NCBI GenBank assembly: GCA_040289575.1
Contig: PSLL01000036.1
Coordinates: 1 to 22,570, forward strand
Direction: 5' to 3'
From: Candidatus Dadabacteria bacterium
Lineage (GTDB): Bacteria > Desulfobacterota_D > UBA1144 > Nemesobacterales > CSP1-2
Length of the DNA: 22,570 nt
Position numbers and translations under genes: made by a program. Positions 2,787 through 21,155 of the stretch are shown one piece after another. The notes beneath the pieces were generated by a model. The model was not told the DNA's origin and did not search any database. It saw only the letters and a list, made by a program, of their open reading frames with translations. Each line of letters opens with the position of its first letter. Positions within the stretch are counted from its first letter, which is position 1.

Positions 2787-2844
2787 AGAGATATTCTACA
2801 CAAATAGGTAGGTGGCACAAATGCAACTCCCGCGAAAAAAGTCC

Positions 2845-2873
2845 TTGACTGCATTTATCAAAGTTGATAAAAT
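2845..2873 (+). promoter_or_regulatory. sigma70-type promoter of the island's first operon
   Basis: TTGACT (2845-2850) - 17 bp - TAAAAT (2868-2873). Confidence 0.7.
2854..2871. promoter_or_regulatory. Palindromic operator candidate TTTATCAA-AG-TTGATAAA
   Basis: Perfect 8-bp inverted repeat covering the promoter spacer and part of the -10. Confidence 0.6.
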
Positions 2874-2958
2874 GGTGAATATAGTAAATAACAAACAGAA
2901 GTCCCCGATTCTAATTTATTAGAGGATATTTTCTTCCACAAATCCTCTGGAGGCGGAG

Positions 2959-3408
2959 ATGGGAGAATTTACATTCAAGATTGCCGAAACCGCAAAGGAA
3001 CTAGAAGAGTATTTTTGCCTTCGCCACGAGGTTTTTGTCCAAGAACAGAGGATATTTTCCGAAACCGATGTTGACCAATACGACAGGGATGCGGTGCATA
3101 TAGTTGCAATTGATAAATCAACTGGAAGGGTGGTAGGTGCGGTCAGGTGTTATAAAAAGGAAGAAAACACGTGGTTCGGCGGACGGCTTGGAGCCGCCCC
3201 GGCCTATCGAAACGGTCAGGTGGGACCAGGACTCGTGAGACTTGCCGTAAAAACGGTGAAATCCAATGGGTGTGAGAGATTCCTTGCGTACATTCAACCT
3301 CAGAACGTGAGATTCTTCGAAAGATTGGGATGGAAAACAGTGGGAGAACCAGTCATCTACCAAGGTCTTCCCCATCAGTTAATGGAAGCGGATTTGGATT
3401 CAGTTTAA
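2959..3408 (+). CDS. GNAT N-acetyltransferase, MSMEG_0567 N-terminal / Sll0786 family (NitE-like)
   Basis: LRHEVFVQEQRIF..D.D.YD, WFGGRL, FLAYIQPQNVRFFERLGW, HQLMEADL; SD GGAGG; cluster context. Confidence 0.88.
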   Translation: MGEFTFKIAETAKELEEYFCLRHEVFVQEQRIFSETDVDQYDRDAVHIVAIDKSTGRVVGAVRCYKKEENTWFGGRLGAAPAYRNGQVGPGLVRLAVKTVKSNGCERFLAYIQPQNVRFFERLGWKTVGEPVIYQGLPHQLMEADLDSV

Positions 3409-3461
3409 GAAACGCATTTAGTCACGAATGAACACGAATTCGTAGCTAATAAGGAAAACAA

Positions 3462-4448
3462 ATGCATGAGCTAATCTCGGCTTTACGCTCTTCTCCCCGA
3501 TTAGACCAAAAGACAAGGTTAAAACACCTCTGGCGCCTATTACCCCAGGTCTCTCGGGTTGACGGCAGCGATATACTTATTGGCGATGATGCGGCATCTA
3601 TTAAAACCCAAGACGGTTACCTGCTTCTTGCCGCAGAAGGCGTTTATCCCCCTCTTTTAAAATCAAATCCTTACCTTGCTGGGCGCACATCCGTTCTTAC
3701 AAATGTAAATGATATATACGCCATGGGCGGCAGGCCTATAGCGATCGTAGATGTGCTCTTCGCATCAGATTCCGAAGAGGCTGAGAAAGTACTCCATGGA
3801 ATCAGAGACAATGCATTACGTTACAAGGTTCCTGTAGTCGGTGGACATTTGACCCTTGAATCGGGCTGCTTTTCGCTCTCTGTCTCTATACTTGGTAAGG
3901 CCAAGAGGTTGATTTCGAGCTTTGGCGCCGAGGTAGATGATGACCTGGTTTTTGTCTCCAATCTCAATGGGAAATTCTACTCCAGTTTTAATTTCTGGGA
4001 TTCTTCGAGCAACCTGAGCGGAGAAGAGGTTCTAACCCAGTTGAACCTCATGCCTCAAATATCCGAGGATGAACTGGCAGATGCAGGAAAGGACATAAGT
4101 ATGGCTGGACTCATAGGCTCAACATTAATGCTCCTTGAGTGTTCCCACAAGGGAGCGGAGATCTACATTGATAAAATCCCTAGGCCCTCTAATGTCTCTC
4201 TAAAAGATTGGCTGATTACGTTCCCGAGTTTTGGATTTGTTCTTTCTCTAAGACCGCGCAACACCCCAAAGGTAAAAGAGATTTTCAGAAAATTTAATTT
4301 AGTGTGTGAGCGAATTGGAAAAGTAACCTCTGATTGTCAGGTCTCTTTCGTTAAGGATTCGGTCGAAAAAAACCTCTTTTGGGACTTTAAAACAGAGCCC
4401 TTGATTGGAATTGAAAAGATAAAAAAAATAAATTCTAACATCGGCTAA
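3462..4448 (+). CDS. AIR synthase (PurM/SelD/HypE superfamily)-like protein, Sll0787 / MSMEG_0567 family (NitF-like)
   Basis: IGDDAA, NVNDIYAMGGRP, VPVVGGH, AGKDISMAG, WL.TFPSFGF. Confidence 0.9.
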   Translation: MHELISALRSSPRLDQKTRLKHLWRLLPQVSRVDGSDILIGDDAASIKTQDGYLLLAAEGVYPPLLKSNPYLAGRTSVLTNVNDIYAMGGRPIAIVDVLFASDSEEAEKVLHGIRDNALRYKVPVVGGHLTLESGCFSLSVSILGKAKRLISSFGAEVDDDLVFVSNLNGKFYSSFNFWDSSSNLSGEEVLTQLNLMPQISEDELADAGKDISMAGLIGSTLMLLECSHKGAEIYIDKIPRPSNVSLKDWLITFPSFGFVLSLRPRNTPKVKEIFRKFNLVCERIGKVTSDCQVSFVKDSVEKNLFWDFKTEPLIGIEKIKKINSNIG

Positions 4449-4459
4449 TAGGTAAATGT

Positions 4460-5041
4460 ATGGCCGAAGAGAAAAATCAGGTAGACAGAATTATATCAAA
4501 GCTGGGAGAAAAAATAAAGGCCCTTCGCATTGAAAAGGGTTGGTCTCTTCAGGACTTAGCTCAAAAATCCGGTATCTCTGCAGCTGGGATTCACAGGATT
4601 GAGTCAAATGGCATAACCCCAACAATAACTACCATGATGAAAATAGCAGACGCCCTGGGAAAGAAGGTCAGCTTCTTTATAGAAGAAGAGGAAGAGGACG
4701 CCGTCTTTGTCCCTTCGGGTAAGCGTGAGTCAATATTCACCTTTAAAAAAGGGCTAGATTTACAATGCGTTTCCGCGAAAAAATACGGTGATTTCATTAT
4801 GACTGCGGCTTATGCGGTGGTTGAGATTGGGGCGTCAAGCGGCAGAAAACCTATGAGCCATCGCGGAGAGGAACTGGTCTACTGCATCGAGGGGAAAATG
4901 GAGTTCCAGGTAAATAACAAGGTATATGTACTTAACCCCGGCGATAGCCTTCACTTTAGAACGATTGCAGAACATAGATGGAGAAATATAGGCGACGTTC
5001 GAGCAAAGCTAATATGGGTGCTCGCTGTCCCGCCCTCGTGA
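4460..5041 (+). CDS. XRE-family HTH transcriptional regulator with C-terminal cupin domain
   Basis: N-terminal IKALR..KGWSLQDLAQKSGIS...IHRIE HTH; cupin H.GEE.VY..EG, L.PGDSLHF..H.W.N. Confidence 0.92.
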   Translation: MAEEKNQVDRIISKLGEKIKALRIEKGWSLQDLAQKSGISAAGIHRIESNGITPTITTMMKIADALGKKVSFFIEEEEEDAVFVPSGKRESIFTFKKGLDLQCVSAKKYGDFIMTAAYAVVEIGASSGRKPMSHRGEELVYCIEGKMEFQVNNKVYVLNPGDSLHFRTIAEHRWRNIGDVRAKLIWVLAVPPS

Positions 5042-5054
5042 GGAACTCGATTAC

Positions 5055-6359
5055 GTGGCTGCCAAAACCAAAATTCAGGGAAAATCAAGAGAGAAAATGT
5101 ACCTGGGAGAGCGGATTAATGAGGCAAATGCGGTTGCTATAGAGAGAATACTCTCTGTTGAGCCAGCTCTTGTTGATGTGAATACCGCACTCAACGCCAT
5201 ACCCAATATGACCCCCAATACCATACTCCATGCAGGGCCTCCAATTGAATGGGAAAGGATGTGCGACCCGATGAAGAGAGCCATTAGAGGAGCCTTGATT
5301 TTTGAGGGGCTGGCTAGTGATGATCAAGAAGCAAAGAGGCTGATTCGGGCAAATAAAATTAAACTCTCTCCAAACCATCATCACGATGCGGCAGGCCCTA
5401 TGACGGGGATTATTTCCCCTTCCATGCCAGTAATCGTCTCAAAGGACTTAACATCCGGCAGAACTGTCTATTCCACATTTAATGAAGGCGGAGGCAGGGT
5501 TCTCTGGTTTGGGGCTTTCGGGGATGAAACGCTTGAGAGACTCAGATGGATGCGTGATGTATTGGGTCCTGTGATGAAAAGGGTAATTGAAAAGGCAGGG
5601 GGTATCTCGATCTGGAATATCTTAGCTCAGGGGATTCAGATGGGGGATGAGTGCCATAACCGCCACGCTGCCTCTACGAACATCTTTCTCAAAAGCATTA
5701 TTGAGCCCCTCTTTTCAATAGATTTATCTCGTGATACTGCCCTGCAGGTCTACAGATTTATAGCCGGAAACAGTCACTTCTTTCTCAACATAACTATGAC
5801 TGGCTGTAAACTCGCAATGGATGCGGCCCGTGATATAGAGGATTCTACAATAGTTACCGCCATGTCTCGAAACGGGACGGATTTTGGTATACGCGTAAGC
5901 GGACTTGGGGATAGCTGGTTTATATCTCCTTCGCCTCTTCTTCTTGATGCCCTATATAATCCGGGGTACGGTCCCGATGACGGCGCTCCTGATATAGGGG
6001 ATAGCGCAATTATAGAGACTATGGGACTTGGTGGATTCACTATTGCTTCTGCACCTGCTATGGCCTCATTTGCTGGTGGTGGCTTCCAGGAAGCCGTGAA
6101 TATAACAAAACAGATGGGTTTGATTACAACTACTAAAAATTCCAAATTTGCAATCCCCTCTTTGGACTTTGAAGGGATCCCGATGGGGATTGATATTCGA
6201 AAGGTCATAGAAACAGAAATTCTTCCAAGCATAGATAGCGCGGTGATTCATAAAGCCAAAGGAACGGGACAGATCGGAGCCGGAATTGTAAAGGCCCCCT
6301 ATGAGTGTTTTGCAAAGGCTCTTATGGCCTTTGGAGAGAAATATAATTGGGCAGTGTAG
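5055..6359 (+). CDS. DUF1116 protein (YlbE/AllG-like oxamate carbamoyltransferase subunit)
   Basis: LHAGPPI.W, GPMTGIISPSMP, MGDECHNR, SRNGTDFGIRVSG, DIGDSAIIET.GLGG, GQIGAG; start uncertain (GTG 5055 or ATG 5097). Confidence 0.9.
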   Translation: MAAKTKIQGKSREKMYLGERINEANAVAIERILSVEPALVDVNTALNAIPNMTPNTILHAGPPIEWERMCDPMKRAIRGALIFEGLASDDQEAKRLIRANKIKLSPNHHHDAAGPMTGIISPSMPVIVSKDLTSGRTVYSTFNEGGGRVLWFGAFGDETLERLRWMRDVLGPVMKRVIEKAGGISIWNILAQGIQMGDECHNRHAASTNIFLKSIIEPLFSIDLSRDTALQVYRFIAGNSHFFLNITMTGCKLAMDAARDIEDSTIVTAMSRNGTDFGIRVSGLGDSWFISPSPLLLDALYNPGYGPDDGAPDIGDSAIIETMGLGGFTIASAPAMASFAGGGFQEAVNITKQMGLITTTKNSKFAIPSLDFEGIPMGIDIRKVIETEILPSIDSAVIHKAKGTGQIGAGIVKAPYECFAKALMAFGEKYNWAV

Positions 6360-6379
6360 TAGATACAAAGAAGAAAAAA

Positions 6380-7942
6380 ATGGCGGTAGTCAGCACGATT
6401 AAGAAAAACTATTATCAGGACTCAATGAAGCTTATGCAGATAAGCCAGAAGCTCAGTACGCTACCCGGCATTAAGAAAGCCTCTGCGATTATGGCAACGG
6501 AGGCTAATCTGAGGATACTAAGAGACACCGGTATAATCGAGCAAATTCCCGAATCGGCAAGTGCAAATGATTTGATTGTAGCGATTGAAGCAGAATCCGA
6601 AAAGGCGGCAAAGGAAGCGATAGAGAAGCTTGATTCTTTTCTTGCTTTTCCCAAAGTTCGGATTACTGCAGGGATAGAATACAAAAACTTTGACTCTGCT
6701 TATGAAGCTCTCCCCCAGGCGAACCTTGCAATTATCTCCGTTCCCGGTCAATACGCGAAACTGGAAGTGGCAAAAGCTATTGAAAGAGGGCTTCATACGT
6801 TCCTTTTCAGCGATAATCTGACAATAGAAGAGGAAATAGAGCTTAAAGAAAGGGCAAGGGAAAGGGGACTCCTGGTTATGGGTCCCGGATGTGGCACAGC
6901 AATAATAAATGGAATCGGGCTTGGGTTTGCAAATGTGGTGATGCGAGGCCCGATTGGAGTAATCGCTGCGTCAGGAACGGGAATGCAGGAGGTCACAACC
7001 CTCATACACAACTGTGGTTCAGGGATTTCTCATGCAATCGGGTTAGGGGGAATAGACCTATCCGAAAAGGTCGGTGGCATTATGGCAATAGAAGCGATAA
7101 GGATACTCGAAAATGATAGAAGCACACAAGCCCTTCTTCTCGTCTCTAAACCGCCGTCTGAGGAGGTAGCGCAAAAGGTAATTAATTTGGTTCATGAATC
7201 CAAAAAGCCCGCCGTTGTGTGCTTTCTTGGAAATAAGTTCGATAAAAAAATAGATTCAAACATCCGCTTTTCTTCAACATTAGAAGAGGCGGCTTTAGAA
7301 GCTTTGAAACTCGTCGACGGGAACACAGATAAGCGCTATATTATCTCTAACAAGAATTGGAAGAAACAGGCCAAGAGGTTCATCCAACTACTTAATCCTA
7401 AACAGAAATACATTCGTGGTCTGTTTTCGGGCGGTACTCTCTGTTATGAAGCTCAATGCGTTCTAACACCGATTTTAGGAAAGATTTATTCAAACGCCCC
7501 TTTATATAAAGAAAACAAATTGGATGACTCAAATCGGAGTAAACGTCATACGTGCATTGACTTAGGCGAGGAGGAATTCACACCGGGGCGTCCTCATCCA
7601 ATGATAGATGCGACTCTGAGAAAGGAGAGATTAATAAAAGAGGCCTCCGACCCAACCACGGCTGTAATACTTTTTGATGTAGTTCTTGGATATGTATCAA
7701 GCCCCGACCCTGCCGGAGGCCTCATTCCGGCAATTAAAGAGGCAAAAAGAATAGCAAAGAGTAAAAAGCGTTCCCTAGCCTTTGTGGCCCACGTCTGTGG
7801 CACGGAAAAAGACCCCCAGGGTTTAAAATCACAGGAGGAAAAACTAATAGAAAGCGGGGTATTAGTTTTTCCCACAAACGCCCTCGCCTCCAGGGTTGCA
7901 GGATGGATTACAAAAAGAGGGGAAAAAGGGTTGGAGATTTAA
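6380..7942 (+). CDS. fdrA: FdrA / AllF-like protein (succinyl-CoA ligase alpha-like)
   Basis: YQDSMKLM N-terminus, ISVPGQYA, FLFSDN, MGPGCGT, ASGTGMQE, GLFSGGTL, GRPHPMID; ATG 6380 preferred over TTG 6347. Confidence 0.9.
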   Translation: MAVVSTIKKNYYQDSMKLMQISQKLSTLPGIKKASAIMATEANLRILRDTGIIEQIPESASANDLIVAIEAESEKAAKEAIEKLDSFLAFPKVRITAGIEYKNFDSAYEALPQANLAIISVPGQYAKLEVAKAIERGLHTFLFSDNLTIEEEIELKERARERGLLVMGPGCGTAIINGIGLGFANVVMRGPIGVIAASGTGMQEVTTLIHNCGSGISHAIGLGGIDLSEKVGGIMAIEAIRILENDRSTQALLLVSKPPSEEVAQKVINLVHESKKPAVVCFLGNKFDKKIDSNIRFSSTLEEAALEALKLVDGNTDKRYIISNKNWKKQAKRFIQLLNPKQKYIRGLFSGGTLCYEAQCVLTPILGKIYSNAPLYKENKLDDSNRSKRHTCIDLGEEEFTPGRPHPMIDATLRKERLIKEASDPTTAVILFDVVLGYVSSPDPAGGLIPAIKEAKRIAKSKKRSLAFVAHVCGTEKDPQGLKSQEEKLIESGVLVFPTNALASRVAGWITKRGEKGLEI

Positions 7943-7959
7943 CTAGGGAGAGAAAGTAG

Positions 7960-8901
7960 ATGAATGTGGCTGTGGTAGCGTTTGGTGGAAATGCCCTTAT
8001 GGATTTCAGTGGCAAAAGCAGTTATGCCGACCAGTTAATGAGAACCGAAAAGATGTGCAGTGAGATTTTGAGTCTTTTTGATTTGGGTTATCAGGTTGCG
8101 ATTACACACGGTAATGGTCCCCAGGTCGGAAATCTCCTCATGCAGCAGGAATCCCTGGCCGATACTATCCCACCAATGCCCCTTCATGTCTGTGATGCAA
8201 TGACACAAGGACAGATAGGGTACATGATAGAGCAGACGCTGAGAAATACGTTTACTAAAAATAGTATAAAAAAATCTGTTGTTGCCCTCGTAACTCAAGT
8301 AGTAGTTTCTGAGAATGATCCTGCATTTCAGAATCCTACAAAGTTTATCGGTCCATTTTTTAATAAAGAGGAGAGCGAAAAGCTCGAGAAGGAAAGGGGA
8401 TGGCAAATGAGAGAGGATTCAGGAAGGGGATGGAGACGTGTTGTGCCGTCTCCAAAGCCGGTTGACATAGTTGAAAAAGAAGAAATTGGAGAGATGATAA
8501 AAAAGGATTTTGTTGTAATAGCGTGTGGGGGCGGTGGAATCCCTGTGCTTCAAGATAAAAAGGGAAGGCTTAAAGGAGTGGCTGCGGTAATTGACAAGGA
8601 TTTTGCGGCAGAGAGACTTGCAAGCCTTATTGGTGCGGATATGCTTCTTTTAGTCACATCTGTAAATCAGGTGTCCATTTTCTATGGGACTCCAAATCAA
8701 AAGAATCTAGGTAAGATGACTCTTAAAGAAGCCAAGCACTACTTGTCAGAAGGGCATTTCCCACCGGGAAGTATGGGACCGAAGATTGAAGCCGCAATTA
8801 AATTTCTCAATTCGGGCGGAAAGAAGGCGATCATAACGTCACTGGAAGGTATAGAAGACTCATTAAAAGGAAAAGACGGAACGGAAATACTCAATGCTTG
8901 A
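7960..8901 (+). CDS. arcC: Carbamate kinase
   Basis: FGGNAL, THGNGPQVG, AF.NPTKFIG, WRRVVPSP.P, GGGGIPV, AVIDKD, GSMGPKIEAA. Confidence 0.95.
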   Translation: MNVAVVAFGGNALMDFSGKSSYADQLMRTEKMCSEILSLFDLGYQVAITHGNGPQVGNLLMQQESLADTIPPMPLHVCDAMTQGQIGYMIEQTLRNTFTKNSIKKSVVALVTQVVVSENDPAFQNPTKFIGPFFNKEESEKLEKERGWQMREDSGRGWRRVVPSPKPVDIVEKEEIGEMIKKDFVVIACGGGGIPVLQDKKGRLKGVAAVIDKDFAAERLASLIGADMLLLVTSVNQVSIFYGTPNQKNLGKMTLKEAKHYLSEGHFPPGSMGPKIEAAIKFLNSGGKKAIITSLEGIEDSLKGKDGTEILNA

Positions 8902-8941
8902 GATATGGGGAACAAAAGCGATGCCTGTTTTTAATACCTCA

Positions 8942-8958
8942 TGCCTAGACATTAAGCA
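8942..8958. promoter_or_regulatory. Possible enhancer-binding-protein site (TGC-N11-GCA)
   Basis: TGCCTAGACATTAAGCA ending about 40 bp upstream of the sigma54 -24 box; ATGCCT also occurs 20 bp earlier at 8921. Confidence 0.3.
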
Positions 8959-8999
8959 CGGATTAAACAGATGTTTTCAAAAAATCAGCCTCTTAACAG

Positions 9000-9014
9000 T
9001 GGCACATTGCTTGC
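9000..9014 (+). promoter_or_regulatory. sigma54 (RpoN) -24/-12 promoter
   Basis: TGGCAC-ATTGC-TTGC, exact GG-N10-GC spacing, intergenic, 80 bp before the ATG at 9095. Confidence 0.8.
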
Positions 9015-9094
9015 GAAATAGAGATTCAAAGAGGCAACCTGAAAAATGATTGCTCTTTTTTTGCTTTTATAATAAGATAGAGGAGGTGAGACAG

Positions 9095-9940
9095 ATGAAG
9101 GTAAACAGAAAGGTATTTGATGCTCATAGTCATATAGGCGAGTTGGCTGCATACAAGTTTTACGACCTTAAAGAACCCGTAAAGCCAACTGTAATAGAAT
9201 ACCCATCCTCAAAGGAATACATAAAGTACATGGACGAGTATGGGATAGATCGGGCGATGGTCATATCCAATTACGGCGTACCCGACTCAGGGCAGCCCTT
9301 TACGCTAAATCCCCTTGTGATTGATAGCGTCCATAAAGCCGACAGACTTATAGGGGCCATTTGGGTCTCAGGCATGCCAAAAGATAAGGAGCGAACAGAA
9401 GAAGCACTAAAGCACGTAAAAGAAAAAGGCATTGTGGCACTAAAAGCCACATGTCTTCTCGGCGGAACCTATAAGCCCGCAGAATGGGATGATACAACAA
9501 GGGGAATATGGAATAGCATTGTGAATGCGGCTGAGGCGAATAACCTCGTTCTCCATATCCACACAAGCCCCGGAGGAGGCTCCGATGTGGGAAACGCCTT
9601 TGAGTTTGTAAAGGAATATGGGAAGCGGATTAAGGTCCATATAGTCCATATGGGAGGCGGGGTGAGCGGCCACATAAGGCTTGTTCCCAAGTTCATTGAG
9701 TTGATAAAAGAGGGTTACCAGATCTATACGGATACCACTTGGGCTATTGGTTTTGGCTCACGGTGGCTGCTTCATGAGATTGAGCGCACGGGCATAGGTA
9801 CCGATAATGTACTCTTTGCCTCTGATACGCCTTGGGGAGACTTCCCCTCAGAGTATTGGAAGGTTGAGGGTGCAAAGATTTCAGAAGAGTTAAAAAATAA
9901 GATTTTTTGGGAAAATGCCCAGAGGCTTTATTCTAGATGA
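9095..9940 (+). CDS. Metal-dependent amidohydrolase (amidohydrolase_2-type TIM barrel)
   Basis: FDAHSH (HxH), LHIHT, IVHMG, LFASDTPW, KIFWENAQRLY; ATG 9095 follows AGGAGGT. Confidence 0.88.
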   Translation: MKVNRKVFDAHSHIGELAAYKFYDLKEPVKPTVIEYPSSKEYIKYMDEYGIDRAMVISNYGVPDSGQPFTLNPLVIDSVHKADRLIGAIWVSGMPKDKERTEEALKHVKEKGIVALKATCLLGGTYKPAEWDDTTRGIWNSIVNAAEANNLVLHIHTSPGGGSDVGNAFEFVKEYGKRIKVHIVHMGGGVSGHIRLVPKFIELIKEGYQIYTDTTWAIGFGSRWLLHEIERTGIGTDNVLFASDTPWGDFPSEYWKVEGAKISEELKNKIFWENAQRLYSR

Positions 9941-10042
9941 AAGTCAAGAAGGGAAATCAGAGAAGTTTCCACTGGCTTCTGGTTTGGTGTCTTAGGAATT
10001 GACCAAATTGAGTATAAAACCAAAACTAAGGAGGGAATAAAA

Positions 10043-10534
10043 ATGACAGTAGAAAGGGTAAAAGGAGAAAGACCGCAAAAGGGAAAGGCAATCGTTAATT
10101 ACGAGGAAAAGGTGTTCCCGGATCACAAGGCGAATCCCGGAGAAAAGGCGCTATTCCTTATCCACACTGTTCCGTATGAGGGTTCAGTGGCCGGTATCAA
10201 TATGCTGACAGCCATAAGATGCAAGAAAAAGGGATACGACGTAAGTGTCGTTTTCTATGGTCCGGCTTCTGCCATACCCGTATACAGAGGCTGGCCCAAT
10301 ATAGGAGACGACGGCTACGGTGCAGGGATACAGCTCTACCCCAATCTAGTCCAAAGAATGCTCAATGAAGGAATAAAGGTCTATGCGTGTCGCTTCTCAG
10401 CCGCCTGTCTCATAGGTGTAAGAGAAGAAGACATGTTAGAAGGTGTGAAGCCGATACATCCAACTGATATCCTGGATATAGTAATTGAACACCACAGGGC
10501 AGGTGCAATGATGTTTAGCACATGGACCGTGTAA
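10043..10534 (+). CDS. DsrE-like nitrogen-starvation protein, MSMEG_0572 / Sll0783 family (NitB-like)
   Basis: YEEKVFPD.KA.PGEKAL, HTVPYEGSV, VYACRF, C-terminal TWTV. Confidence 0.9.
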   Translation: MTVERVKGERPQKGKAIVNYEEKVFPDHKANPGEKALFLIHTVPYEGSVAGINMLTAIRCKKKGYDVSVVFYGPASAIPVYRGWPNIGDDGYGAGIQLYPNLVQRMLNEGIKVYACRFSAACLIGVREEDMLEGVKPIHPTDILDIVIEHHRAGAMMFSTWTV

Positions 10535-10571
10535 TGGATTAATCTGGATTAGCTCTAAGTGCTAGTTCTCA

Positions 10572-10623
10572 TAGGGGCAATCATTGGAGTTACCTATTAT
10601 GGATAACCCTAGATTTGCCCCTA
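10572..10623. repeat. Long REP-like intergenic hairpin
   Basis: TAGGGGCAA (10572-10580) / TTGCCCCTA (10615-10623) with an imperfect inner GTTACC/GGATAAC stem; a second imperfect hairpin lies at about 10652-10678. Confidence 0.55.
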
Positions 10624-10709
10624 CAGTTGAAATAGAGATTTGTGAGTTCAACTTTTTCCCCAAAATTGGGAGAGAGGGATTGAACGCATAGATAGATAAG
10701 GAGGGAATT

Positions 10710-11843
10710 ATGGATTCAAAGGCCCTGAAAGTAGAACTACAGAGTTACGGACTGAGGATTCCCGATACGAGAAATATAAGAAGAGGCGGAGCGGGGCCTA
10801 CCGGAGGAATCCATCTAAAGATTCTTCCCGACAGCGAAGGGAATATTCCGGTTGTCGGAGATTTTGTCCATTCCTCCCCATATTATCTCGATCAGATAAA
10901 CGGCGAATACTGGGTGTTCCGAGACGGCGTTGCTCTTAATCAGGTAGAGCTTATGGGGGCGGCTAAGTTTTACGAACACACAACATCAATGGGGGTGCCT
11001 ATGGGTAAGATCGGACTCCTCCACTGCCCGACGACATTTGCTACAACCCTCCTTCAGACATGCGTCTTTTGGGAAGATTCAAGGCGATGCAAGTTCTGCG
11101 GGATTGAACTTACGCTCAAAGACAGAAGCACAGTGGGATTTAAGGATCCCAAAAGCCTCGTTGAAACTATATCACGTGCAAAGGAGCTCGACGGTATCAA
11201 GAACATAGTTTTTACATCCGGAGTTGCAAAAGATGAGGAAAAGGCGCTGAAGAAATACGCCGAAATATGCTCGGAGGTAAAGGAGGCAACGGGTCTTCCG
11301 ATTCAGCTTCAGATAGTTCCTCCCGAGGACTTAGGTTGGCTTAAGAGGTTAAAAGACTGCGGCGTTGATGCGCTAGGGATTCATATTGAAACATTCGACC
11401 CGGGCGTGTTTGAGAAGATAACCCCGGGAAAGGCAAAAATCGGGTTCGATAGATATATAGGGGCGTGGAAAGAGGCCGTGAGTGTTTTTGGAAGATGGCA
11501 GGTTAGCACGTACGTCTTAGTAGGACTCGGAGAAAAACTAGAGACCATAATAAAAGGTGCTGCCCTTTGTGCCGATATTGGGGTTTATCCGTTTATCGTT
11601 CCATTTCGTCCAATTGCAGGAACACCTATGGAAAATGTAAAGCCTCCGGAGTCCCATGTGATGGAATATGTATATACCGAAGCCGCAAAGATACTCTCGA
11701 AATGCGATGGTGGCTCAAAGAGCAGCAAGGCGGGATGTGTAAGCTGTGGTGAGTGCTCAGCACTTCCCGATTTTGAAAGGGCATTGAATCCGGGGAATGT
11801 GAGATTTAAAAAATTCATCTCAAAATCGCATGGTGTCAACTGA
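10710..11843 (+). CDS. Radical SAM protein, MSMEG_0568 family (NitD-like)
   Basis: ELQSYGLR, RRGGAGP, ATTLLQTC-x8-CKFC, QVSTYVLVGLGE, YPFIVPFRPI.GT, C-terminal KAGCVSCGECS. Confidence 0.92.
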   Translation: MDSKALKVELQSYGLRIPDTRNIRRGGAGPTGGIHLKILPDSEGNIPVVGDFVHSSPYYLDQINGEYWVFRDGVALNQVELMGAAKFYEHTTSMGVPMGKIGLLHCPTTFATTLLQTCVFWEDSRRCKFCGIELTLKDRSTVGFKDPKSLVETISRAKELDGIKNIVFTSGVAKDEEKALKKYAEICSEVKEATGLPIQLQIVPPEDLGWLKRLKDCGVDALGIHIETFDPGVFEKITPGKAKIGFDRYIGAWKEAVSVFGRWQVSTYVLVGLGEKLETIIKGAALCADIGVYPFIVPFRPIAGTPMENVKPPESHVMEYVYTEAAKILSKCDGGSKSSKAGCVSCGECSALPDFERALNPGNVRFKKFISKSHGVN

Positions 11844-11888
11844 TTTGTAAAGAGGATGAGGTCTTAGCTCAAGTGAGGTGAGGTTAAT

Positions 11889-13238
11889 ATGACTCAAAAT
11901 AATCTGCGTATCATTGTAATAGGAGGAGGTGCTGCAGGAATTTCGGCGGCATCAACGGCAAGGGCTGTCGCTCCGGATGCTCACGTAACCCTTTTCACAG
12001 AATATGAAGACGTAGCATACAGCCCCTGCGGCATTCCATTTGTTCACGGTAGGGAGATCCCAGACTTCAAGAGCTTATTCCTTCAAACCCCTGAGCACTA
12101 TGCCGAGATTGGAATTGATTTAAGACTCCAAACAACCGTTACGAGGATTGATCTGAACAACCGTACAGTAAACGTCGGCTCTCAGGTGTTTGAGTGGGAT
12201 CGCCTTGTTATTGCTACAGGGTTTGAATACGAAAAACCCAATATCCCGGGAATTGATTTGGAAGGAATTCATTATGTTAAAAACATACGCCGTGCAATGG
12301 AGTTTGATAAAATTCTCGACCAGATAAAAAGGGTTGTCGTCGTATCGGCAACGCCGCTTGGAATCGAGATGACGGGGAATCTCGCGCACAGGGGGCTTGA
12401 AACCCATCTCGTAGATGAAGGAGCATGGCTTATGTCTGAGGTTGCTGATCCGGACATTATGCAGCCGGTTCAGAAGTCCCTTGAGGAATTTGGGGCAAAG
12501 ATTCATCTTGGAACAAAGGTTCTCGGGTTTAATGGCTCAGACGGGAATGTAAAATCCGTAGTCACAACAGAAGGGGAAATCCCCTGCGATGTGGCTGTGA
12601 TTGCCACGCATAAAAAGCCAAATAACCGCCTCTCGCGCGAAGCAGGATTAAAGATTGGAGCGACCGGCGGAATCATCGTGGACGACCACATGAGAACATC
12701 CGCAAAGGATGTTTATGCGGCCGGAGACTGCATAGAGGTTATTCACGGTGTAACAGATGTTCCCATTCAGGGGCTTTCAGGAAGCCATGCCTACTCTCAG
12801 GGAAGGGTTGCAGGAGCCAATGCCGCGGGCGACGAACGCGCTTATGACCCCGTGTATGTCCCCTGGGGAATGGTAGGCGGAAGGGTTCAGATCGGCGGGG
12901 TTTCATTTGGAGAGACACTAAATAAGGCTCTGGGGATTCCCCATATAGTTGCCGCCGCCCAGGGAATTTCGAGAGCAAGATACTATCCCGGAGTAAGCAG
13001 GATTCTTGTAAAGCTCATTGCCGACCCGAAGACACTTCGTGTGATGGGTGCTCAGATGGCGGGCGGTGAAGGGATTAAAGAAAGGGCAGATTTTCTCGCA
13101 TTTGCAATAAAGCGTGGGGCTACGCTTAATGATTTTGCATGGATGGAGAATGTCTATTCTCCTCCAATCGGAGCCTTAATGGAGCCTATTGCTCTAGCCG
13201 CTCAGGCAGGATTGGCAGAGTTGGCAAAAAGGAAATAA
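11889..13238 (+). CDS. FAD-dependent oxidoreductase, CoA-disulfide reductase / NADH oxidase family
   Basis: IGGGAAG FAD motif, AYSPCGIP single redox Cys, VYAAGD, C-terminal YSPP dimerisation motif. Confidence 0.85.
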   Translation: MTQNNLRIIVIGGGAAGISAASTARAVAPDAHVTLFTEYEDVAYSPCGIPFVHGREIPDFKSLFLQTPEHYAEIGIDLRLQTTVTRIDLNNRTVNVGSQVFEWDRLVIATGFEYEKPNIPGIDLEGIHYVKNIRRAMEFDKILDQIKRVVVVSATPLGIEMTGNLAHRGLETHLVDEGAWLMSEVADPDIMQPVQKSLEEFGAKIHLGTKVLGFNGSDGNVKSVVTTEGEIPCDVAVIATHKKPNNRLSREAGLKIGATGGIIVDDHMRTSAKDVYAAGDCIEVIHGVTDVPIQGLSGSHAYSQGRVAGANAAGDERAYDPVYVPWGMVGGRVQIGGVSFGETLNKALGIPHIVAAAQGISRARYYPGVSRILVKLIADPKTLRVMGAQMAGGEGIKERADFLAFAIKRGATLNDFAWMENVYSPPIGALMEPIALAAQAGLAELAKRK

Positions 13239-13912
13239 TGACGATATATATAAAATTATCAGTAAAAGGTCAATTTGATTACTCCTTCCTACAGAAGGCC
13301 CAGACTTCTGGGCTCTACAAAAAAGCACTTTTACTGTTCTATTTCACATTAGGATACAATATACTAGAAGGATTAGCATCAATTTTTACGGGTTTATCAA
13401 CCGATAGCATTGCCCTATTTGGGTTTGGACTGGACAGTTTTATAGAATCTCTTTCAGCAGGTGTGATGGTTTGGCGATTCAGAAAACATGAAAAAATATC
13501 AAAAGAGGAAGAAGAAAGGATAGAGGCAAAGGCTATAAGACTGATCGCTTACGCTTTTTTTATTCTCGGAGCTTACGTTTTATATGAATCTACAAAAAAC
13601 CTATACTTTTGCGAGATCTCAGATCCAAGTCTCTTGGGAATAATTATCGCCATTGCCTCTATTATAGTAATGCCGATTTTGTTTTATATGAAATATCGAA
13701 CTGGAAAATCAATAGATAGTAGAAGCTTGGTAATGGACTCAAAGCAGACACTCGCTTGTGTATCGCTGTCCGTTGCCTTGTTAATTGGATTGGGGCTTAA
13801 TTATTTTTACAAACTGTGGTGGGCAGATCCAATTATCGGTTTAATTATTGCAACCTTCCTGATAAAAGAGGGCTATGGTGCTCTAAATGAAGAGAAATTA
13901 TGTAGTTGCTGA
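13238..13912 (+). CDS. Cation diffusion facilitator-like transporter (transmembrane domain only)
   Basis: YNILEG, SIAL.GFGLDSFIE, SRSLVMDS.QT, WWADP; TAATG stop/start overlap with the upstream gene. Confidence 0.85.
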   Translation: MTIYIKLSVKGQFDYSFLQKAQTSGLYKKALLLFYFTLGYNILEGLASIFTGLSTDSIALFGFGLDSFIESLSAGVMVWRFRKHEKISKEEEERIEAKAIRLIAYAFFILGAYVLYESTKNLYFCEISDPSLLGIIIAIASIIVMPILFYMKYRTGKSIDSRSLVMDSKQTLACVSLSVALLIGLGLNYFYKLWWADPIIGLIIATFLIKEGYGALNEEKLCSC

Positions 13913-13988
13913 CCTCTCATTATAAGAATGCATATAATAACAAAAAACTCGAATCTCTATTGGTGATTGAAATAAAAGGAAATTTGAA

Positions 13989-14255
13989 ATGTCAGAGAAA
14001 AAGTCATTTGGCGAGTGGTTAAGAGAAAACGCCCAAAAATACCTGCTCGAAGCCGCTGCCGATGAGATGGCAACCCGTTACCCTGATTTCTGTGCGAAGC
14101 CCTATAGAGAAAAAGGACTCATTCCGTTTTTCTGGCGGAATATATTTGTTCCAATTTATTCAAGAATTCCCTGGGGCGTTCGCAGAAAGGTGATCCTCCT
14201 CAGCTCATATCCAACTGGAGAGCGCCCGCATTGGAAAAGATTTGGACAAGGGTGA
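13989..14255 (+). CDS. Small hypothetical protein (88 aa) within the cluster
   Basis: ATG ORF with AAGGA SD, co-oriented, fills the gap between neighbours. Confidence 0.7.
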   Translation: MSEKKSFGEWLRENAQKYLLEAAADEMATRYPDFCAKPYREKGLIPFFWRNIFVPIYSRIPWGVRRKVILLSSYPTGERPHWKRFGQG

Positions 14256-14265
14256 TTCCCTCTTC

Positions 14266-15276
14266 ATGGCTATAAACAAGGAAATCCATTTCAACTCGCT
14301 AATAGCTAAATCTATTGGATATAAGGTGCTAGAAGCACTAAGCGATTCTAAGAAACCTAAAGTGCATAGTGTCTTCGACCATGCATTCTATATACAATCC
14401 AGGGGTAAATCCCTAATTAGTGTAATTAAAAACGAGAACTATATCAGTCCCGCATCCATATTGATAAAAGACTTTGGGAATAAAAGCTTTAAATCAATTG
14501 GCGTTGTGGAAGGAATGAAAGTAAAATTCGATAAACGCACCCTGACACTCGGAGATAATATAATTGCTATTAAATTGGCAAAAACCTCCAACTGGACTAT
14601 ACCCCTATCTCCTAAAACCCCTTTTATAAGCCCAACTGGCATAAGCCTAAATCTCAGGGTACTCAGAGACATAATCTATGCGTGTCCCAGCAGAGAAGGG
14701 CTTGTCCCAATCCTAGAGAATGTGGAATTATACGGCCCGCTTAAATTCTTCCTTCAACCGCAAAAGCCCACATTTTCGGAAAGGGCAAGGCCCTATATTG
14801 ATATGCTTATGCGTGGGCTGTTTAGATGCGACTCTTATATGATCATAAATGGGGCTTTATCTATCGTTGGGCTTGGCCCCGGACTTACTCCTTCATGCGA
14901 TGACTTTTTATATGGCTTAATACTGAGCCTGAATGTATGTGGAAACACACTAATTAAAGATAGAAAAAAACAGGTCGGCTTCTACAGAAGAGTCTCTTCT
15001 GAGATCTGTCGGATGACAAAAGGAAAAACCACAATATACAGCCAGAGCCTTTTAGATCAAGCCCGACGCGGTGAGGGACATAAGTCCGTGATTGAATTGA
15101 TCCACAGCCTCATCACAAAAGACCCAGACCAAGTTGCTTCTGTCTCAAAGACAGTAATAGAGATGGGAGAGACTTCAGGAGCCGATATCGCAATTGGCAT
15201 CTATTATGGGATTCGATTTCTAGTTTCACAGATGGAGATGAAAAGCATAGAAGATTTAATAGATGAAATCACTTAA
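14266..15276 (+). CDS. DUF2877 protein (YlbF/AllH-like)
   Basis: VHSVF, GLGPGLTPSCDDFLYG, T..YS..LL..A..G, GETSGADIAIG; alternative TTG start at 14242. Confidence 0.85.
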   Translation: MAINKEIHFNSLIAKSIGYKVLEALSDSKKPKVHSVFDHAFYIQSRGKSLISVIKNENYISPASILIKDFGNKSFKSIGVVEGMKVKFDKRTLTLGDNIIAIKLAKTSNWTIPLSPKTPFISPTGISLNLRVLRDIIYACPSREGLVPILENVELYGPLKFFLQPQKPTFSERARPYIDMLMRGLFRCDSYMIINGALSIVGLGPGLTPSCDDFLYGLILSLNVCGNTLIKDRKKQVGFYRRVSSEICRMTKGKTTIYSQSLLDQARRGEGHKSVIELIHSLITKDPDQVASVSKTVIEMGETSGADIAIGIYYGIRFLVSQMEMKSIEDLIDEIT

Positions 15277-16423
15277 GATCGCACTCCTTACCTATTCGAC
15301 AAAGCCAAGGGGCGGTGTGGTTCACACACTAAATCTGGCTGAGGAATTATTCCGCCTTAAGCACCAGGTTCATTTATATGCCCTGAGCTCAGGAGGAGGT
15401 TTTTTTAGAACTGTAAGCGTCCCGCATACCCTTATCCTCTGTCCTACTCCTCGTGAAGAAACCATAGATGAAAAGGTGGAGAGGTATATAAACACATATT
15501 CTGATTTCCTGGTCTCCGCATCGAGAGATTATGACATATATCACGCCGAGGATTGCGTCTCTGCAAACGCCCTTCTCAATTTGCGCAATCGGGGCTTAAT
15601 AAAATCCTTCGTTAGAACCGTTCATCACATAGATGACTTTACATCCCAGTCTCTAATTGACTGTCAAATCAGAAGCATCGTGGAGCCGGATTACTTAATC
15701 ACTGTCAGCAAGTTTTGGGAAAAAGAACTCCGCTTTCGGTATTCATTAAGTCCTACTGTCATTCATAACGGCGTGGATGTGGAGAGATTCAGAATTCAAG
15801 AAGGATTTTCAAAAGAAAAAACCAGGGAGTCTTTTTCCGTAAGCGGATGTAATGTAATTCTAAGTATCGGTGGAATTGAGCCTCGAAAAAATACATTGAC
15901 CTCCCTCAGGGCATTTAAAATCGCAAGTCAATATTTTAAAACAAAAGGCGAGCGTCTTGTATGGCTAATTGGAGGTGGCGAGACACTATTTGATTACAGG
16001 GCATATCGCGAAGAATTCTTCTCCGAGATCGAGAATATAGGATTAAAACTAAATGAAGACATAATCCTCCTCGGTGCTGTCCCTGATGATTCCATGCCCA
16101 ATCTCTATAGAGCGGCGGATGTACTTGTCTTTCCTTCCGTTAAAGAGGGATGGGGGCTTGTTGTGCTTGAAGCCATGGCATCGGGGCTTCCCGTAATCAC
16201 CTCCGGCCTAGAACCCTTAACGGAGTATCTGAAAGACAGGGAAAATGCTCTACTCATTTCTCCCATGGACTATAAAGCTTTGGCTCAGCAGATTATCAGT
16301 GTTATAGAAAGCGATGAGCTTCGGGATAAACTTACGAGAAACGGAAGAAAAACGGCGCAGGCTTATAGTTGGCGGAATACGGCGTTAAGACACTCAGAGT
16401 TTTATAGTAGAATTTTAGGCTGA
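15263..16423 (+). CDS. GT4 glycosyltransferase, MSMEG_0565 family
   Basis: IALLTYSTKPRGGVVH, RTVHHID.F, GGIEPRKN, FPSVKEGWGLVVLEAMASGLP. Confidence 0.9.
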   Translation: MKSLKIALLTYSTKPRGGVVHTLNLAEELFRLKHQVHLYALSSGGGFFRTVSVPHTLILCPTPREETIDEKVERYINTYSDFLVSASRDYDIYHAEDCVSANALLNLRNRGLIKSFVRTVHHIDDFTSQSLIDCQIRSIVEPDYLITVSKFWEKELRFRYSLSPTVIHNGVDVERFRIQEGFSKEKTRESFSVSGCNVILSIGGIEPRKNTLTSLRAFKIASQYFKTKGERLVWLIGGGETLFDYRAYREEFFSEIENIGLKLNEDIILLGAVPDDSMPNLYRAADVLVFPSVKEGWGLVVLEAMASGLPVITSGLEPLTEYLKDRENALLISPMDYKALAQQIISVIESDELRDKLTRNGRKTAQAYSWRNTALRHSEFYSRILG

Positions 16424-16475
16424 TTAATCTCTTCAGATTTAGGGTGATATAAACAGCGGAGCTTCGATTCGGTAT

Positions 16476-16952
16476 CTAGGTGAGTTTTGCACGGAAGCTC
16501 AAGTTGACTTCCCAAGTCTGGCCAAGGGACTCCACTTCGCCTCCTGTCGAGAGCCTACCTCGCACCTTGCCCTGCTCGATATGAAAGCCCTCTACCTTGA
16601 GTTCGCCAAGAGAGCTAAACGGCGTCTTTTTATGTGCCGTGTGTGCTACTTCAGTGCCAATGAGATGCCCAGAGCGTGTGAAAGTTACAATAAGGGCGCT
16701 GCCGAACTTGCCAAAGGAGGCCATGATTTCAGGGTGCTGTTCGCCACCTGTATTCCTTTCAGTGAGTACGACAATAACTGTCTCCTTACCTGAGAACGGC
16801 TCTCCGGCATGTGCGGTGGCGAAGGCGAGGTGGGCATCCTTACCATTCCCGCGAAATATATCAGTTACAGACCGCTCTGCAGCCGTGAGGGTTACTAGAC
16901 CAGGGAGACAGACACAAGCCAATATTAGGGTACAAAAAATAGGATAAACCAT
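16476..16952 (-). CDS. Hypothetical exported protein
   Basis: ATG 16952 after a GAGG SD gives a signal-peptide-like N-terminus; the ORF track starts at 16985. Confidence 0.65.
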   Translation of the reverse strand: MVYPIFCTLILACVCLPGLVTLTAAERSVTDIFRGNGKDAHLAFATAHAGEPFSGKETVIVVLTERNTGGEQHPEIMASFGKFGSALIVTFTRSGHLIGTEVAHTAHKKTPFSSLGELKVEGFHIEQGKVRGRLSTGGEVESLGQTWEVNLSFRAKLT

Positions 16953-17020
16953 GAAGATTTCCTCTTTTATATGTATATGGCTCATGTTAATTACTGTGCA
17001 ATCCTCAATTCTTTTGTGAA

Positions 17021-17049
17021 AATATACTTACAGGTCTTCCCGAAGTCAA
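17021..17049 (-). promoter_or_regulatory. sigma70-type promoter for the exported hypothetical protein
   Basis: Minus strand TTGACT - 17 bp - TATATT. Confidence 0.55.
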
Positions 17050-17101
17050 TGGATTAGGAAGAAATTATGGAGCCAAACGGTTGGGAGACTAGAACATATA
17101 C

Positions 17102-17416
17102 CTAATCCTCGTGCGCTTCGAGGCAGGTGACACCTTCGGGGCCAACGCGTGCGGCATGAATGGTACCGCGTGGCAAATCCAGACGATCACCAGCACGTGT
17201 TTCAATTTCCTGATTCATCTGTGGTAGTACCCAAATAATCGAGCCGCGAAGAACATATATTACCTTATCGTATGGATGGGTATGGGCCGCGTATGTATCG
17301 CCGGGCGCATTAGACCAGGCGTATAGAGATAGACCTTCGCGGAGAAAGCACTCACTTAGTGTACGCTCATCTGGCGGCTCAGACTTCTCCCAACGTTGGA
17401 TTTTCAACTCTGTCAT
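17102..17416 (-). CDS. Small cupin-domain protein
   Basis: WSNAPG..YAAHTH.YDKVIYVLRGSI, GDRLDLPRGT.H.A.VG; ATG 17416 preferred over GTG 17446. Confidence 0.82.
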   Translation of the reverse strand: MTELKIQRWEKSEPPDERTLSECFLREGLSLYAWSNAPGDTYAAHTHPYDKVIYVLRGSIIWVLPQMNQEIETRAGDRLDLPRGTIHAARVGPEGVTCLEAHED

Positions 17417-17478
17417 TAATAGACATTTTATCGGTTGTAGGGACACTTTGCAAAGTGTCCCTACATTTTGGTTAGAAG

Positions 17479-19599: not shown

Positions 19600-19893
19600 G
19601 TCTTATTCTCCTTCTCCTTAAAATGATTTTTAGGTCTAGGCTTAGTTTTGTTTAGAGCTAGAAGAAAGGCTCCACCCTTTTTTGATAACAAAAAAGAGAT
19701 AGACGTAGTCCAAGAACCTTCATCCTCTATCAATTTAAATGGAAACAAATTTAAGCCTAACCCTCTTAGATAGTCAAAATTTGATTTTTCAGGGAATGCA
19801 AGATAACTGGAAAACTCGGAAATTACAAGTGCTTTCTCTCCATGGTATGCCTAATACAAGATTCGACATGTAAACAGTATAATCCTCGACCAC

Positions 19894-19921
19894 TTGAAGT
19901 ATAGCCCCGATTAGCTATAAT
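19894..19921 (+). promoter_or_regulatory. sigma70-type promoter for trxA
   Basis: TTGAAG - 16 bp - TATAAT. Confidence 0.5.
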
Positions 19922-19962
19922 TTTTGTACTAAACCAAAATATATATTAAGGAGAACTCCAGA

Positions 19963-20292: not shown

Positions 20293-20443
20293 CTTGTGTA
20301 AATCAGGTTATACAAGCCTAGATATAGTGAAATCGAAAGCGGATAATTCATATTCTCTATATTTTCGTCATAACCTTCCGTTAACTCTGATTTATTAAAA
20401 AGCAGATTTGAACCCATATTAAAGCTCAAATCAGGATGGTTAG

Positions 20444-20557: not shown

Positions 20558-20592
20558 AATTATAGTTTTCGAACACAACCAGTCATCCATAG

Positions 20593-20976: not shown

Positions 20977-21019
20977 TCTCTCCTCCTTTGTTCCACAAGA
21001 ATTTTTCGCAAAGACTCAA

Positions 21020-21110: not shown

Positions 21111-21155
21111 CTTAATTGCCCTATTGCCTTAAAACCCTAAATGAGGAGGAATCAG

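Follow-up and report, generated by a model that had tools for sequence, protein, structure and literature searches.

Genes of the cluster

The subject of this study is a gene cluster in the genome of a Candidatus Dadabacteria bacterium (assembly GCA_040289575.1). Positions 1 to 22,570 of the forward strand of contig PSLL01000036.1 were analysed, and this whole stretch is referred to as the window. Thirteen co-directional genes form an array on the + strand (2959-16423), among them the gene of a predicted amidohydrolase (AH) and genes known from the nitrilase cluster Nit1C. In the available passages of the literature, Nit1C (nitB-nitH) is described with all seven genes preserved (PMC1199592) and corresponds to the gpr cluster MSMEG_0565-0572 of Mycobacterium smegmatis, for which peroxide resistance and a raised NADPH/NADP ratio were reported (PMC6039565). 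According to the same parts of these sources, what Nit1C does has been an open question since 2005 (PMC1199592); its function was still called 'obscure' in 2021, and the physiological role of its nitrilase 'unclear' (PMC7815647).

The AH gene (9095-9940) encodes a metal-dependent TIM-barrel enzyme of the Amidohydro_2 family (PF04909, E 5.4e-15). It is followed by the gene of NitB (10043-10534; MSMEG_0572/Sll0783 family, DsrE-like; TIGR04044 174.6 bits, cut-off 109.85; PF02635 E 7e-5). After a spacer of exactly 175 bp (10535-10709), the length originally predicted, the gene of the radical SAM protein NitD begins (10710-11843; MSMEG_0568 family; TIGR04043 344 bits, cut-off 303.7). Three further genes of the Nit1C type belong to the array. 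The first two encode a NitE-type GNAT acetyltransferase (2959-3408; MSMEG_0567/Sll0786 family; TIGR04045 162.9 bits, cut-off 68.45) and a NitF-type AIR-synthase-like protein (3462-4448; sll0787 family; TIGR04049 349.8 bits, cut-off 321.3), for which methanogenesis marker 2 was the runner-up model with 252 bits, under its cut-off. The last is a GT4 glycosyltransferase of the MSMEG_0565 family (15263-16423; TIGR04047 404.1 bits, cut-off 259.85). Thus, NitB, NitD, NitE, NitF and GT4 each pass the NCBIfam cut-offs of families built on Nit1C/MSMEG_0565-0572.

For comparison, a profile of 39 AH orthologues was run against 185,579 species genomes (one per GTDB species), and 435 AH relatives were detected. 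The locus counts given below rest on 80 of these, kept with up to 10 kb on either side of AH. They belong to Dadabacteria/Thermodesulfobacteriota, Chloroflexota, Marinimicrobia, Actinomycetota, Dormibacterota and Acidobacteriota, i.e. to at least six phyla, and all 80 stem from metagenome-assembled genomes or other assemblies of uncultured organisms. In a protein collection 1011 AH homologues were found at E<=1e-3, the best 120 being 57-91% identical. Among the 80 loci, NitE is present in 70, NitF in 65 and GT4 in 28.

The remaining genes of the array are of other types. Between NitF and AH lie an HTH-cupin regulator similar to PuuR (4460-5041; Pfam HTH_3 and Cupin_2; 48/80 loci), an AllG (DUF1116)-like subunit resembling that of oxamate carbamoyltransferase (5055-6359; PF06545 E 1.7e-81; 55/80), an FdrA/AllF-like subunit (6347-7942; NF004760 504.6 bits, cut-off 433; 60/80) and a carbamate kinase (7960-8901; TIGR00746 409.8 bits, cut-off 358.25; 46/80). 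Downstream of NitD a pyridine-nucleotide-disulfide oxidoreductase is encoded in the place of NitH (11889-13238; 56/80 loci). The best match of this flavoprotein was CoA-disulfide reductase (TIGR03385), with 284 bits below the cut-off of 578.8; the SPCGIP motif is conserved in its profile consensus. A conserved protein of 88 amino acids takes the place of NitG (13989-14255); its gene occurs in 45/80 loci, always after the flavoprotein gene, and Pfam and NCBIfam scans gave no match for it. It is followed by an AllH (DUF2877)-like subunit (14242-15276; PF11392 E 2.1e-23), detected in 11/80 loci, window-type ones only. AH, AllG and AllH likewise matched none of the NCBIfam models.

Absence of the nitrilase and distribution of the amidohydrolase

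The absence of a carbon-nitrogen hydrolase gene from the window had been noted before and was confirmed with three methods. Pfam assigned CN_hydrolase to none of the 28 open reading frames (ORFs) of the window, and tblastn with three Nit6803-family nitrilases gave no match in it at E<=10. A nitrilase hidden Markov model (HMM) was run against 9282 six-frame segments of the window and the 80 loci. The best E-value was 3.5; as a control, the three source loci of the model were recovered at E<=1e-202. Hence, by tblastn and HMM a nitrilase was found within 10 kb on either side of AH in 0/80 loci. The ORFs left unmatched were also checked: 51 conserved clusters of them, scanned with Pfam through representatives, yielded no CN_hydrolase, and for about 180 singletons the result comes from tblastn and the HMM only. 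The idea that the 175-bp spacer preserves the remains of a lost nitrilase gene was rejected, as tblastn was without a match at E<=10 and the spacer is not conserved.

The canonical cluster was examined on plasmids. A NitD relative was present in 517 records of a plasmid collection, and an AH homologue (E<=1e-3) in 0/72,556 records. Nine canonical loci were compared, from Caballeronia, two cyanobacteria, Acetobacter, Rhodococcus, Methylorubrum, Klebsiella, Sagittula and Tistrella. NitC, NitG and NitH are present in all nine, and none contains AH, the flavoprotein, the 88-aa protein, AllG, FdrA or carbamate kinase. The order nitB-nitC-nitD, taken as canonical in the original prediction, was found in eight of them; the Rhodococcus locus (L084) differs. 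In the window, neither NitG (tblastn with three NitG proteins) nor NitH gave a match at E<=0.01.

Distant homology was investigated with hhalign. The comparison of the AH profile with the NitC profile yielded a probability of 0.8, and AH is not homologous to the nitrilase superfamily. The 88-aa protein was rejected as a diverged NitG (probability 0.1). The flavoprotein was rejected as a diverged NitH, since only the N-terminal Rossmann part is common to both (probability 94, 157 columns). Thus, the counterparts of NitC, NitG and NitH are not diverged homologues, and the two architectures differ by a gene block, not by one gene.

AH is linked to the core genes. By tblastn with the window proteins, NitB and/or NitD were detected in 70/80 AH loci (NitD in 68, NitB in 65). 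In the other ten loci the contig always ends on the side where these genes are expected, and seven of them still hold GNAT/AIRS and other cluster genes. In none of the 80 loci could an absence of NitB and NitD be demonstrated. The second, nitrilase-free subtype proposed in the original prediction, with AH linked to NitB/NitD as an integral part, is thereby borne out. AH is a co-inherited core component and no chance neighbour. AH-type loci bring AH, the CoA-disulfide-reductase (CoADR)-like flavoprotein and the 88-aa protein, and usually also the AllF/AllG(/AllH)-like subunits and carbamate kinase.

Three arrangements of AH were distinguished; five loci were too truncated for classification. 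The order of the window, AH-NitB-NitD, is shared by 27 loci. Directly before NitD the AH gene was found in 25/80 loci, in 13 of these with NitB just upstream. In 19 loci the distance from the AH stop to the NitD start is -23 to +13 nt, comparable to the -71 to +30 nt between NitC and NitD in eight canonical loci. This position next to NitD is the best support for a displacement in situ, and it differs from the arrangement in the window. In 23 loci AH is not part of the operon; it is transcribed divergently and follows a zinc-ribbon gene of the FmdB type. Overall, a zinc-ribbon gene of the FmdB family (~124 aa) was observed directly upstream of AH in 32/80 loci, e.g. L016 (9594-9968), in the range L016-L060 (also L018, L033, L035, L045, L046, L050, L053, L058 and L059; the loci are numbered with L). 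The window contains no counterpart of this gene; the best tblastn match had E 0.095 over 23 residues.

Phylogenetic trees separated both types. In a quick IQ-TREE analysis of NitD (78 rows) the nine nitrilase-type rows are on one side of a branch with SH-aLRT 89. In the concatenated tree of NitB, NitD, NitE and NitF (36 rows) the nitrilase type is on one side of a branch with SH-aLRT 100. For the latter tree, 50 of 90 sources (the window and 89 loci) had all four genes at plausible length, and thinning at 85% identity left 36 rows; of the nine nitrilase rows five were kept, L081, L084, L088 and L089 being lost at the two filters. The mutual exclusivity of nitrilase and AH by clade, which had been named as a test, is thus observed with both data sets.

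Four deep lineages of the core genes join at a poorly resolved centre. Three are of the AH type (Actinomycetota/Dormibacterota; Chloroflexota/Marinimicrobia; Dadabacteria/Thermodesulfobacteriota, including the window) and one is of the nitrilase type. Midpoint rooting places the nitrilase clade among the AH types. The same was obtained with a single distant outgroup, the radical SAM paralogue L090; this rooting of the NitD tree was discarded as unreliable (branch length 10, root on the longest ingroup branch). Because the nitrilase clade nests among AH types under these roots, the direction 'amidohydrolase replaces nitrilase' may be wrong and the exchange may have run the other way.

AH itself was exchanged between cluster lineages. 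In the AH trees (81 and 50 rows) the AHs of divergent-type Thermodesulfobacteriota/Dadabacteria loci nest inside the Chloroflexota/Marinimicrobia clade, whereas the core genes of the same loci (NitD, concatenate) group with the lineage of the window (SH-aLRT 100). Forcing these AHs onto the core clade cost 52.6 log-likelihood units (p-AU 0.010, 50-row tree), the tested group having been defined from the core tree with the AH tree already seen. This conflict implies a transfer or replacement of AH, together with the zinc-ribbon gene, between cluster lineages (L016-L060 vs L001-L012). The cluster thus kept an AH through at least one gene exchange, which argues that it needs one.

Expression signals and further features

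The original prediction described the AH gene as the first of its unit and as having a very strong Shine-Dalgarno (SD) sequence. The latter was read directly as GAGGAGGTGA (9080-9089, +), 6 nt before the ATG, and its GGAGGTG is conserved in relatives. Window-type relatives share a conserved block immediately 5' of the SD; its last letters resemble TATAAT. The position as first gene is plausible for the lineage of the window. A spacer of 193 bp precedes AH and holds the sole exact TGGCAC-N5-TTGC of the window (9000-9014, +), a predicted sigma-54-type -24/-12 motif 81 nt before the AH start. AH lies inside the 13-gene co-directional array.

The looser motif TGGYAY-N5-TTGC was found in the same spacer of four of eight full window-type relatives (L001 9902-9916; L002 9847-9861; L004 9836-9850; L006 9895-9909). 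It also occurs 65-100 nt upstream of nitB in 4/9 canonical plasmid loci (L081 6427-6441; L085 5313-5327; L087 5420-5434; L089 5347-5361), and in L035 upstream of the genes for carbamate kinase, zinc ribbon and AH. In total there were 26 matches in 19/90 loci, with about 11 expected by chance (estimated from base counts, ~2.9 Mb on both strands). The window holds no gene of a sigma-54 activator. By analogy with nitB-nitC-nitD in proteobacterial Nit1C, the unit AH-NitB-NitD is probably driven by sigma-54. A scan of 2700-16700 for sigma-70 promoters and terminators was uninformative, with 19 promoter-like sites vs 21.9 expected.

The NitB-NitD spacer, which ends in the SD of NitD, is strongly structured (RNA minimum free energy -59 kcal/mol, z -4.6). 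Equivalent spacers of 44 loci (73-320 nt) had a median z of -2.8, with z<=-2 in 32/44 (25 mononucleotide shuffles per spacer). Two other spacers of the window are not structured (z +1.07 and -0.86). The sequence of the spacer is not conserved (25% column identity in the alignment), and Rfam gave 0 matches at gathering score in the window, this spacer included. The hairpin-rich region after NitB possibly separates NitB from the genes that follow, by way of processing, stabilisation or attenuation.

In NitB, C116 is invariant in 67/67 sequences of both cluster types. The cysteines C118-x8-C127-x2-C130 and the C-terminal C343-x2-C346-x2-C349 of NitD are invariant in 39/39 sequences; the spacing of the first group is unusual compared with CxxxCxxC. 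The NitD ORF is enlarged to 533 aa in L026 and 574 aa in L035, possibly by a fusion with GNAT. In L007 two NitB copies of equal length flank AH (9420-9908 and 10861-11349); the second is situated between AH and NitD and has 177.5 bits for TIGR04044.

Another ORF family of 210-265 aa ('c1', 21 loci; e.g. L035 18037-18834, L056 9272-9904) matches no known family. It is placed between AllG and FdrA in the Chloroflexota type or between NitB and AH in the Actinomycetota type. An identification as diverged AllH was rejected (hhalign probability 0.1).

Between the flavoprotein and 88-aa genes the window carries a lineage-specific insertion of ~750 bp (13238-13987, +; GC 0.38) with a CDF-transporter-like ORF (13235-13912; PF01545 E 5e-17) that comprises the membrane domain only. 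The insertion was found in 0/80 related loci; L001 is otherwise collinear with the window, with 87% identity on both flanks. The CDF-like ORF is outside the conserved cluster. The 5' neighbours of the array are genes for HemW (1623-2786, -) and YjbQ (739-1152) and a DUF2946-like ORF. On the 3' side (16476-22430) there are a small cupin (17102-17446, -), a Na+/H+-pyrophosphatase (17479-19599, -), a thioredoxin (19963-20292), an AdoMet decarboxylase (20593-20976, -) and a GYD-domain protein (21141-21446), besides ORFs without assignment.

Possible role of the amidohydrolase and comparison with known systems

AH has 281 amino acids. Its start is the ATG at 9095 and not the TTG at 9050, because the alignment with homologues of 281-285 aa begins at residue 1. 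Amidohydro_2 was matched with 56.3 bits (gathering cut-off 26.4), as it was by 39/39 AH orthologues; TatD (25/39) and Amidohydro_1 (5/39) gave weak profile matches. An AlphaFold model (pLDDT 88.5, pTM 0.90) contains a barrel of eight beta/alpha units with strands at 8-14, 53-58, 85-91, 113-119, 152-156, 180-184, 210-213 and ~240. The HxH motif of the original prediction is H-S-H at residues 11-13, and with HxH on strand 1 and Asp on strand 8 AH has the barrel signature of PF04909. Seven residues are invariant in 39/39 sequences. They are placed by the model on strands 1 (H11, H13), 4 (K117), 5 (H154, H156), 6 (H185) and 8 (D244).

With Foldseek against the PDB, AH matched structures of the PF04909 type with probability 1.0 (E ~3e-11, TM 0.6-0.72) at an identity of 13-18%. 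Matches were 5-carboxyvanillate (LigW), gamma-resorcylate and 2,3-dihydroxybenzoate decarboxylases, IDCase, ACMSD, LigI-like proteins, the uncharacterised CAC3332 (3cjp) and the oxygenases TruffO and AibH1H2. The look-alikes of AH in the ESM Atlas were further PF04909 clusters only and gave no functional lead.

Dihydroorotase, hydantoinase and allantoinase exemplify the binuclear amidohydrolases in which a lysine is carboxylated; their signature consists of HxH on strand 1, Lys on strand 4, one His each on strands 5 and 6, and Asp on strand 8. AH has the expected residue, without variation, at each of these five positions; profiles of binuclear amidohydrolases gave no match beyond the weak ones to TatD and Amidohydro_1. 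Because AH shows this pattern, we lean towards an amide or ureide hydrolase. An invariant lysine on strand 4 is not known as a feature of these PF04909 decarboxylases.

The accompanying genes were considered for hints on the pathway. FdrA, AllG, AllH and carbamate kinase families are all present together in the window. In the available passages of PMC11326118, AllF, AllG and AllH with the carbamate kinase AllK are the oxamate carbamoyltransferase and kinase of E. coli. No other genes of the allantoin pathway were detected among the window ORFs scanned with Pfam and NCBIfam, and oxalurate is an unlikely substrate of the AllFGH-like enzyme. OsmC-like genes occur in 18/80 AH loci.

Genes for coenzyme M are absent from the window. 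About 7-12 of the 80 loci have them within the AH-type cluster or adjoining it (L029, L031, L035, L061, L062, L066, L068, L069, L073, L076); in L061, L068, L069 and L076 they are found between NitF and AllG (e.g. L061 13534-19117). The bacterial pathway is given as xcbABCDE in the part of PMC9457059 available. Representatives of these genes were scanned with profiles and the remainder was assigned by BLAST clustering. XcbA reached 310 bits (cut-off 150) and XcbD 605 bits (cut-off 600); the relatives of ComA/XcbB, XcbC and XcbE were below the cut-offs. In general, the accompanying genes suggest thiol/redox and carbamoyl chemistry; the reaction of AH is not fixed by them.

In our view, the window very probably carries a nitrilase-free sister architecture of Nit1C/gpr. 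As to mechanism, AH would be a metal-dependent hydrolase acting on the product of the NitD/NitE/NitF core, where it would open or cleave a bond of the amide or ureide type. Disposal or supply of the carbamoyl group (as carbamoyl phosphate, NH3, CO2 and ATP) would then fall to the AllFGH-like carbamoyltransferase and carbamate kinase. Together these enzymes would form a several-step version of the lone nitrogen-handling job of the nitrilase in Nit1C. As a whole, architecture and mechanism combined, this is our best explanation and is held tentatively, with slightly less than even confidence; the chemistry proposed for the AH module is, taken by itself, doubtful.

Several points weigh against this explanation. 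The nearest structures of AH are PF04909 decarboxylases, LigI-like proteins and diiron oxygenases, and no amide or nitrile hydrolase is among the structural matches listed. PDB sequence and profile matches span only the C-terminal ~50 residues (E 7e-4 to 3e-3). AH is located before NitB, not adjoining NitD, in the window, and stands outside the operon in the 23 divergent loci. Furthermore, AH, the flavoprotein, the AllFGH-like subunits and carbamate kinase co-occur, so that it is not separable which of them stands in for the nitrilase, if any. Finally, 355 of the 435 AH relatives are outside the examined set, and with loci picked by AH and a canonical set of nine plasmid loci, clusters with both enzymes or with neither could be missed.

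In a stricter version, AH alone performs the step of the nitrilase and frees ammonia from an identical or closely related intermediate, an amide instead of a nitrile, all other differences being incidental. The mutual exclusivity of both enzymes on the trees and in the collections fits this, as does the position of AH in the nitrilase slot before NitD in 25 loci, overlapping or abutting in 19. AH and the flavoprotein are also the most conserved cluster proteins across phyla (55-62% identity vs 36-43% for NitD). However, NitG and NitH vanish together with NitC, and four to six other genes arrive with AH. Among the matches, no characterised PF04909 relative is a C-N hydrolase. The locations of AH before NitB and outside the operon are further objections, and, as the Rhodococcus locus shows, the nitrilase too can lie elsewhere than between NitB and NitD. 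We consider a displacement of this strict kind unlikely.

Alternatively, AH would be an ordinary PF04909 enzyme (decarboxylase, lactonase or hydratase) catalysing a step without counterpart in Nit1C, in a pathway that never makes a nitrile and hence has no nitrilase. The best structural matches (LigW, gamma-resorcylate decarboxylase, IDCase, ACMSD, LigI-like), the Amidohydro_2 matches of all 39 members and the many genes in which the cluster is unlike Nit1C speak for this assignment. Yet the identity to those enzymes is just 13-18%, the invariant K117 is not a known feature of such decarboxylases, and the equivalent positions of AH and nitrilase beside NitD would be coincidence. This possibility, too, is judged improbable.

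More speculative, and rather remote in our estimation, is that the AH type represents the older and more diverse form of the Nit1C/gpr family, with the nitrilase type derived from it. The core would then consist of a DsrE-like NitB with its invariant cysteine, a BioB/LipA-like radical SAM protein, a GNAT, a HypE/PurM-like NitF and a BshA/MshA-like GT4, and would build or recycle a sulfur-containing redox metabolite. This metabolite would be tied to coenzyme M biosynthesis in some lineages and served by the CoADR-like reductase and an OsmC-type peroxidase; carbamate kinase, the AllFGH-like enzyme and AH would form a carbamoyl-phosphate arm that supplies or removes a carbamoyl or amide group. 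If true, it would account for the phenotypes (peroxide resistance, NADPH) that were reported for gpr and Sll0783. That the organism still relies on a nitrilase, encoded at another place in its genome, with AH as an extra accessory enzyme, is highly improbable, given 0/80 loci in at least six phyla with a nitrilase nearby, 9/9 canonical clusters with the nitrilase inside, and the preservation of all seven Nit1C genes stated in the available passages of PMC1199592.

The original prediction had interpreted the locus as a non-orthologous replacement of the C-N cleaving enzyme. The nitrilase slot is indeed taken by AH in 25 loci, with stop and start overlapping or abutting in 19; the exchange is not one-for-one, as NitG and NitH are gone as well. 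C-N cleavage by AH had been assumed from the name of the superfamily. The name 'amidohydrolase' alone does not show such an activity, and the neighbours, at 13-18% identity, are decarboxylases, lactonase-like proteins and oxygenases. With three of four deep core lineages of the AH type and the nitrilase type nested, the assumed direction is not upheld either. The claim of a one-for-one replacement thus exceeds the evidence in scope, chemistry and direction.

With five genes kept and the rest swapped, the comparison sets an invariant core (NitB, NitD, NitE, NitF, GT) apart from a peripheral chemistry that can be exchanged. A Nit1C-type core can work without a nitrilase. The carbamoyl-phosphate module, the CoA-disulfide-reductase-like enzyme, OsmC and the embedded coenzyme M genes are new functional clues, and they favour thiol/redox and carbamoyl chemistry over nitrile detoxification. 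With 435 AH relatives in the species genomes, the variant is common; its restriction to uncultured organisms in all 80 loci may be the reason why it escaped notice. In the titles, abstract starts and passages of the literature searched, no description of an amidohydrolase-type Nit1C was found.

Compared with known PF04909 enzymes, AH is alike in Pfam membership, predicted fold, HxH on strand 1 and Asp on strand 8. It differs from the decarboxylases of this family in being ~50-90 residues shorter, in the invariant lysine on strand 4 and in the low identity. All four families of the E. coli set AllFGH and AllK are present in the window, FdrA and carbamate kinase above the NCBIfam cut-off and AllG and AllH by Pfam. 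In contrast to E. coli, they are embedded in a Nit1C-like cluster and not in an allantoin regulon, with AllH detectable in 11/80 loci. Unlike the xcb pathway, the coenzyme M genes of AH-type loci were not seen adjoining alkene or epoxide genes.

The closest relation is that to Nit1C. Common to both architectures are NitB, NitD, NitE, NitF and GT4, co-directional operon-like arrays, a spacer after nitB and a sigma-54-type motif upstream of the unit (in the window and in 4/9 canonical loci). The window is without the nitrilase NitC, NitG and NitH, and adds AH, the CoADR-like flavoprotein, the 88-aa protein, AllF/G/H-like subunits, carbamate kinase and the HTH-cupin regulator. Compared with the nitrilases Nit6803 and Nit11764 (nitrile_sll0784 family), AH is found in many lineages in the same slot, directly 5' of nitD and overlapping or abutting it, without being homologous to them. 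The hosts differ as well. AH-type loci belong to assemblies of uncultured organisms, whereas the canonical examples lie on plasmids of cultured Proteobacteria, Cyanobacteria and Rhodococcus.

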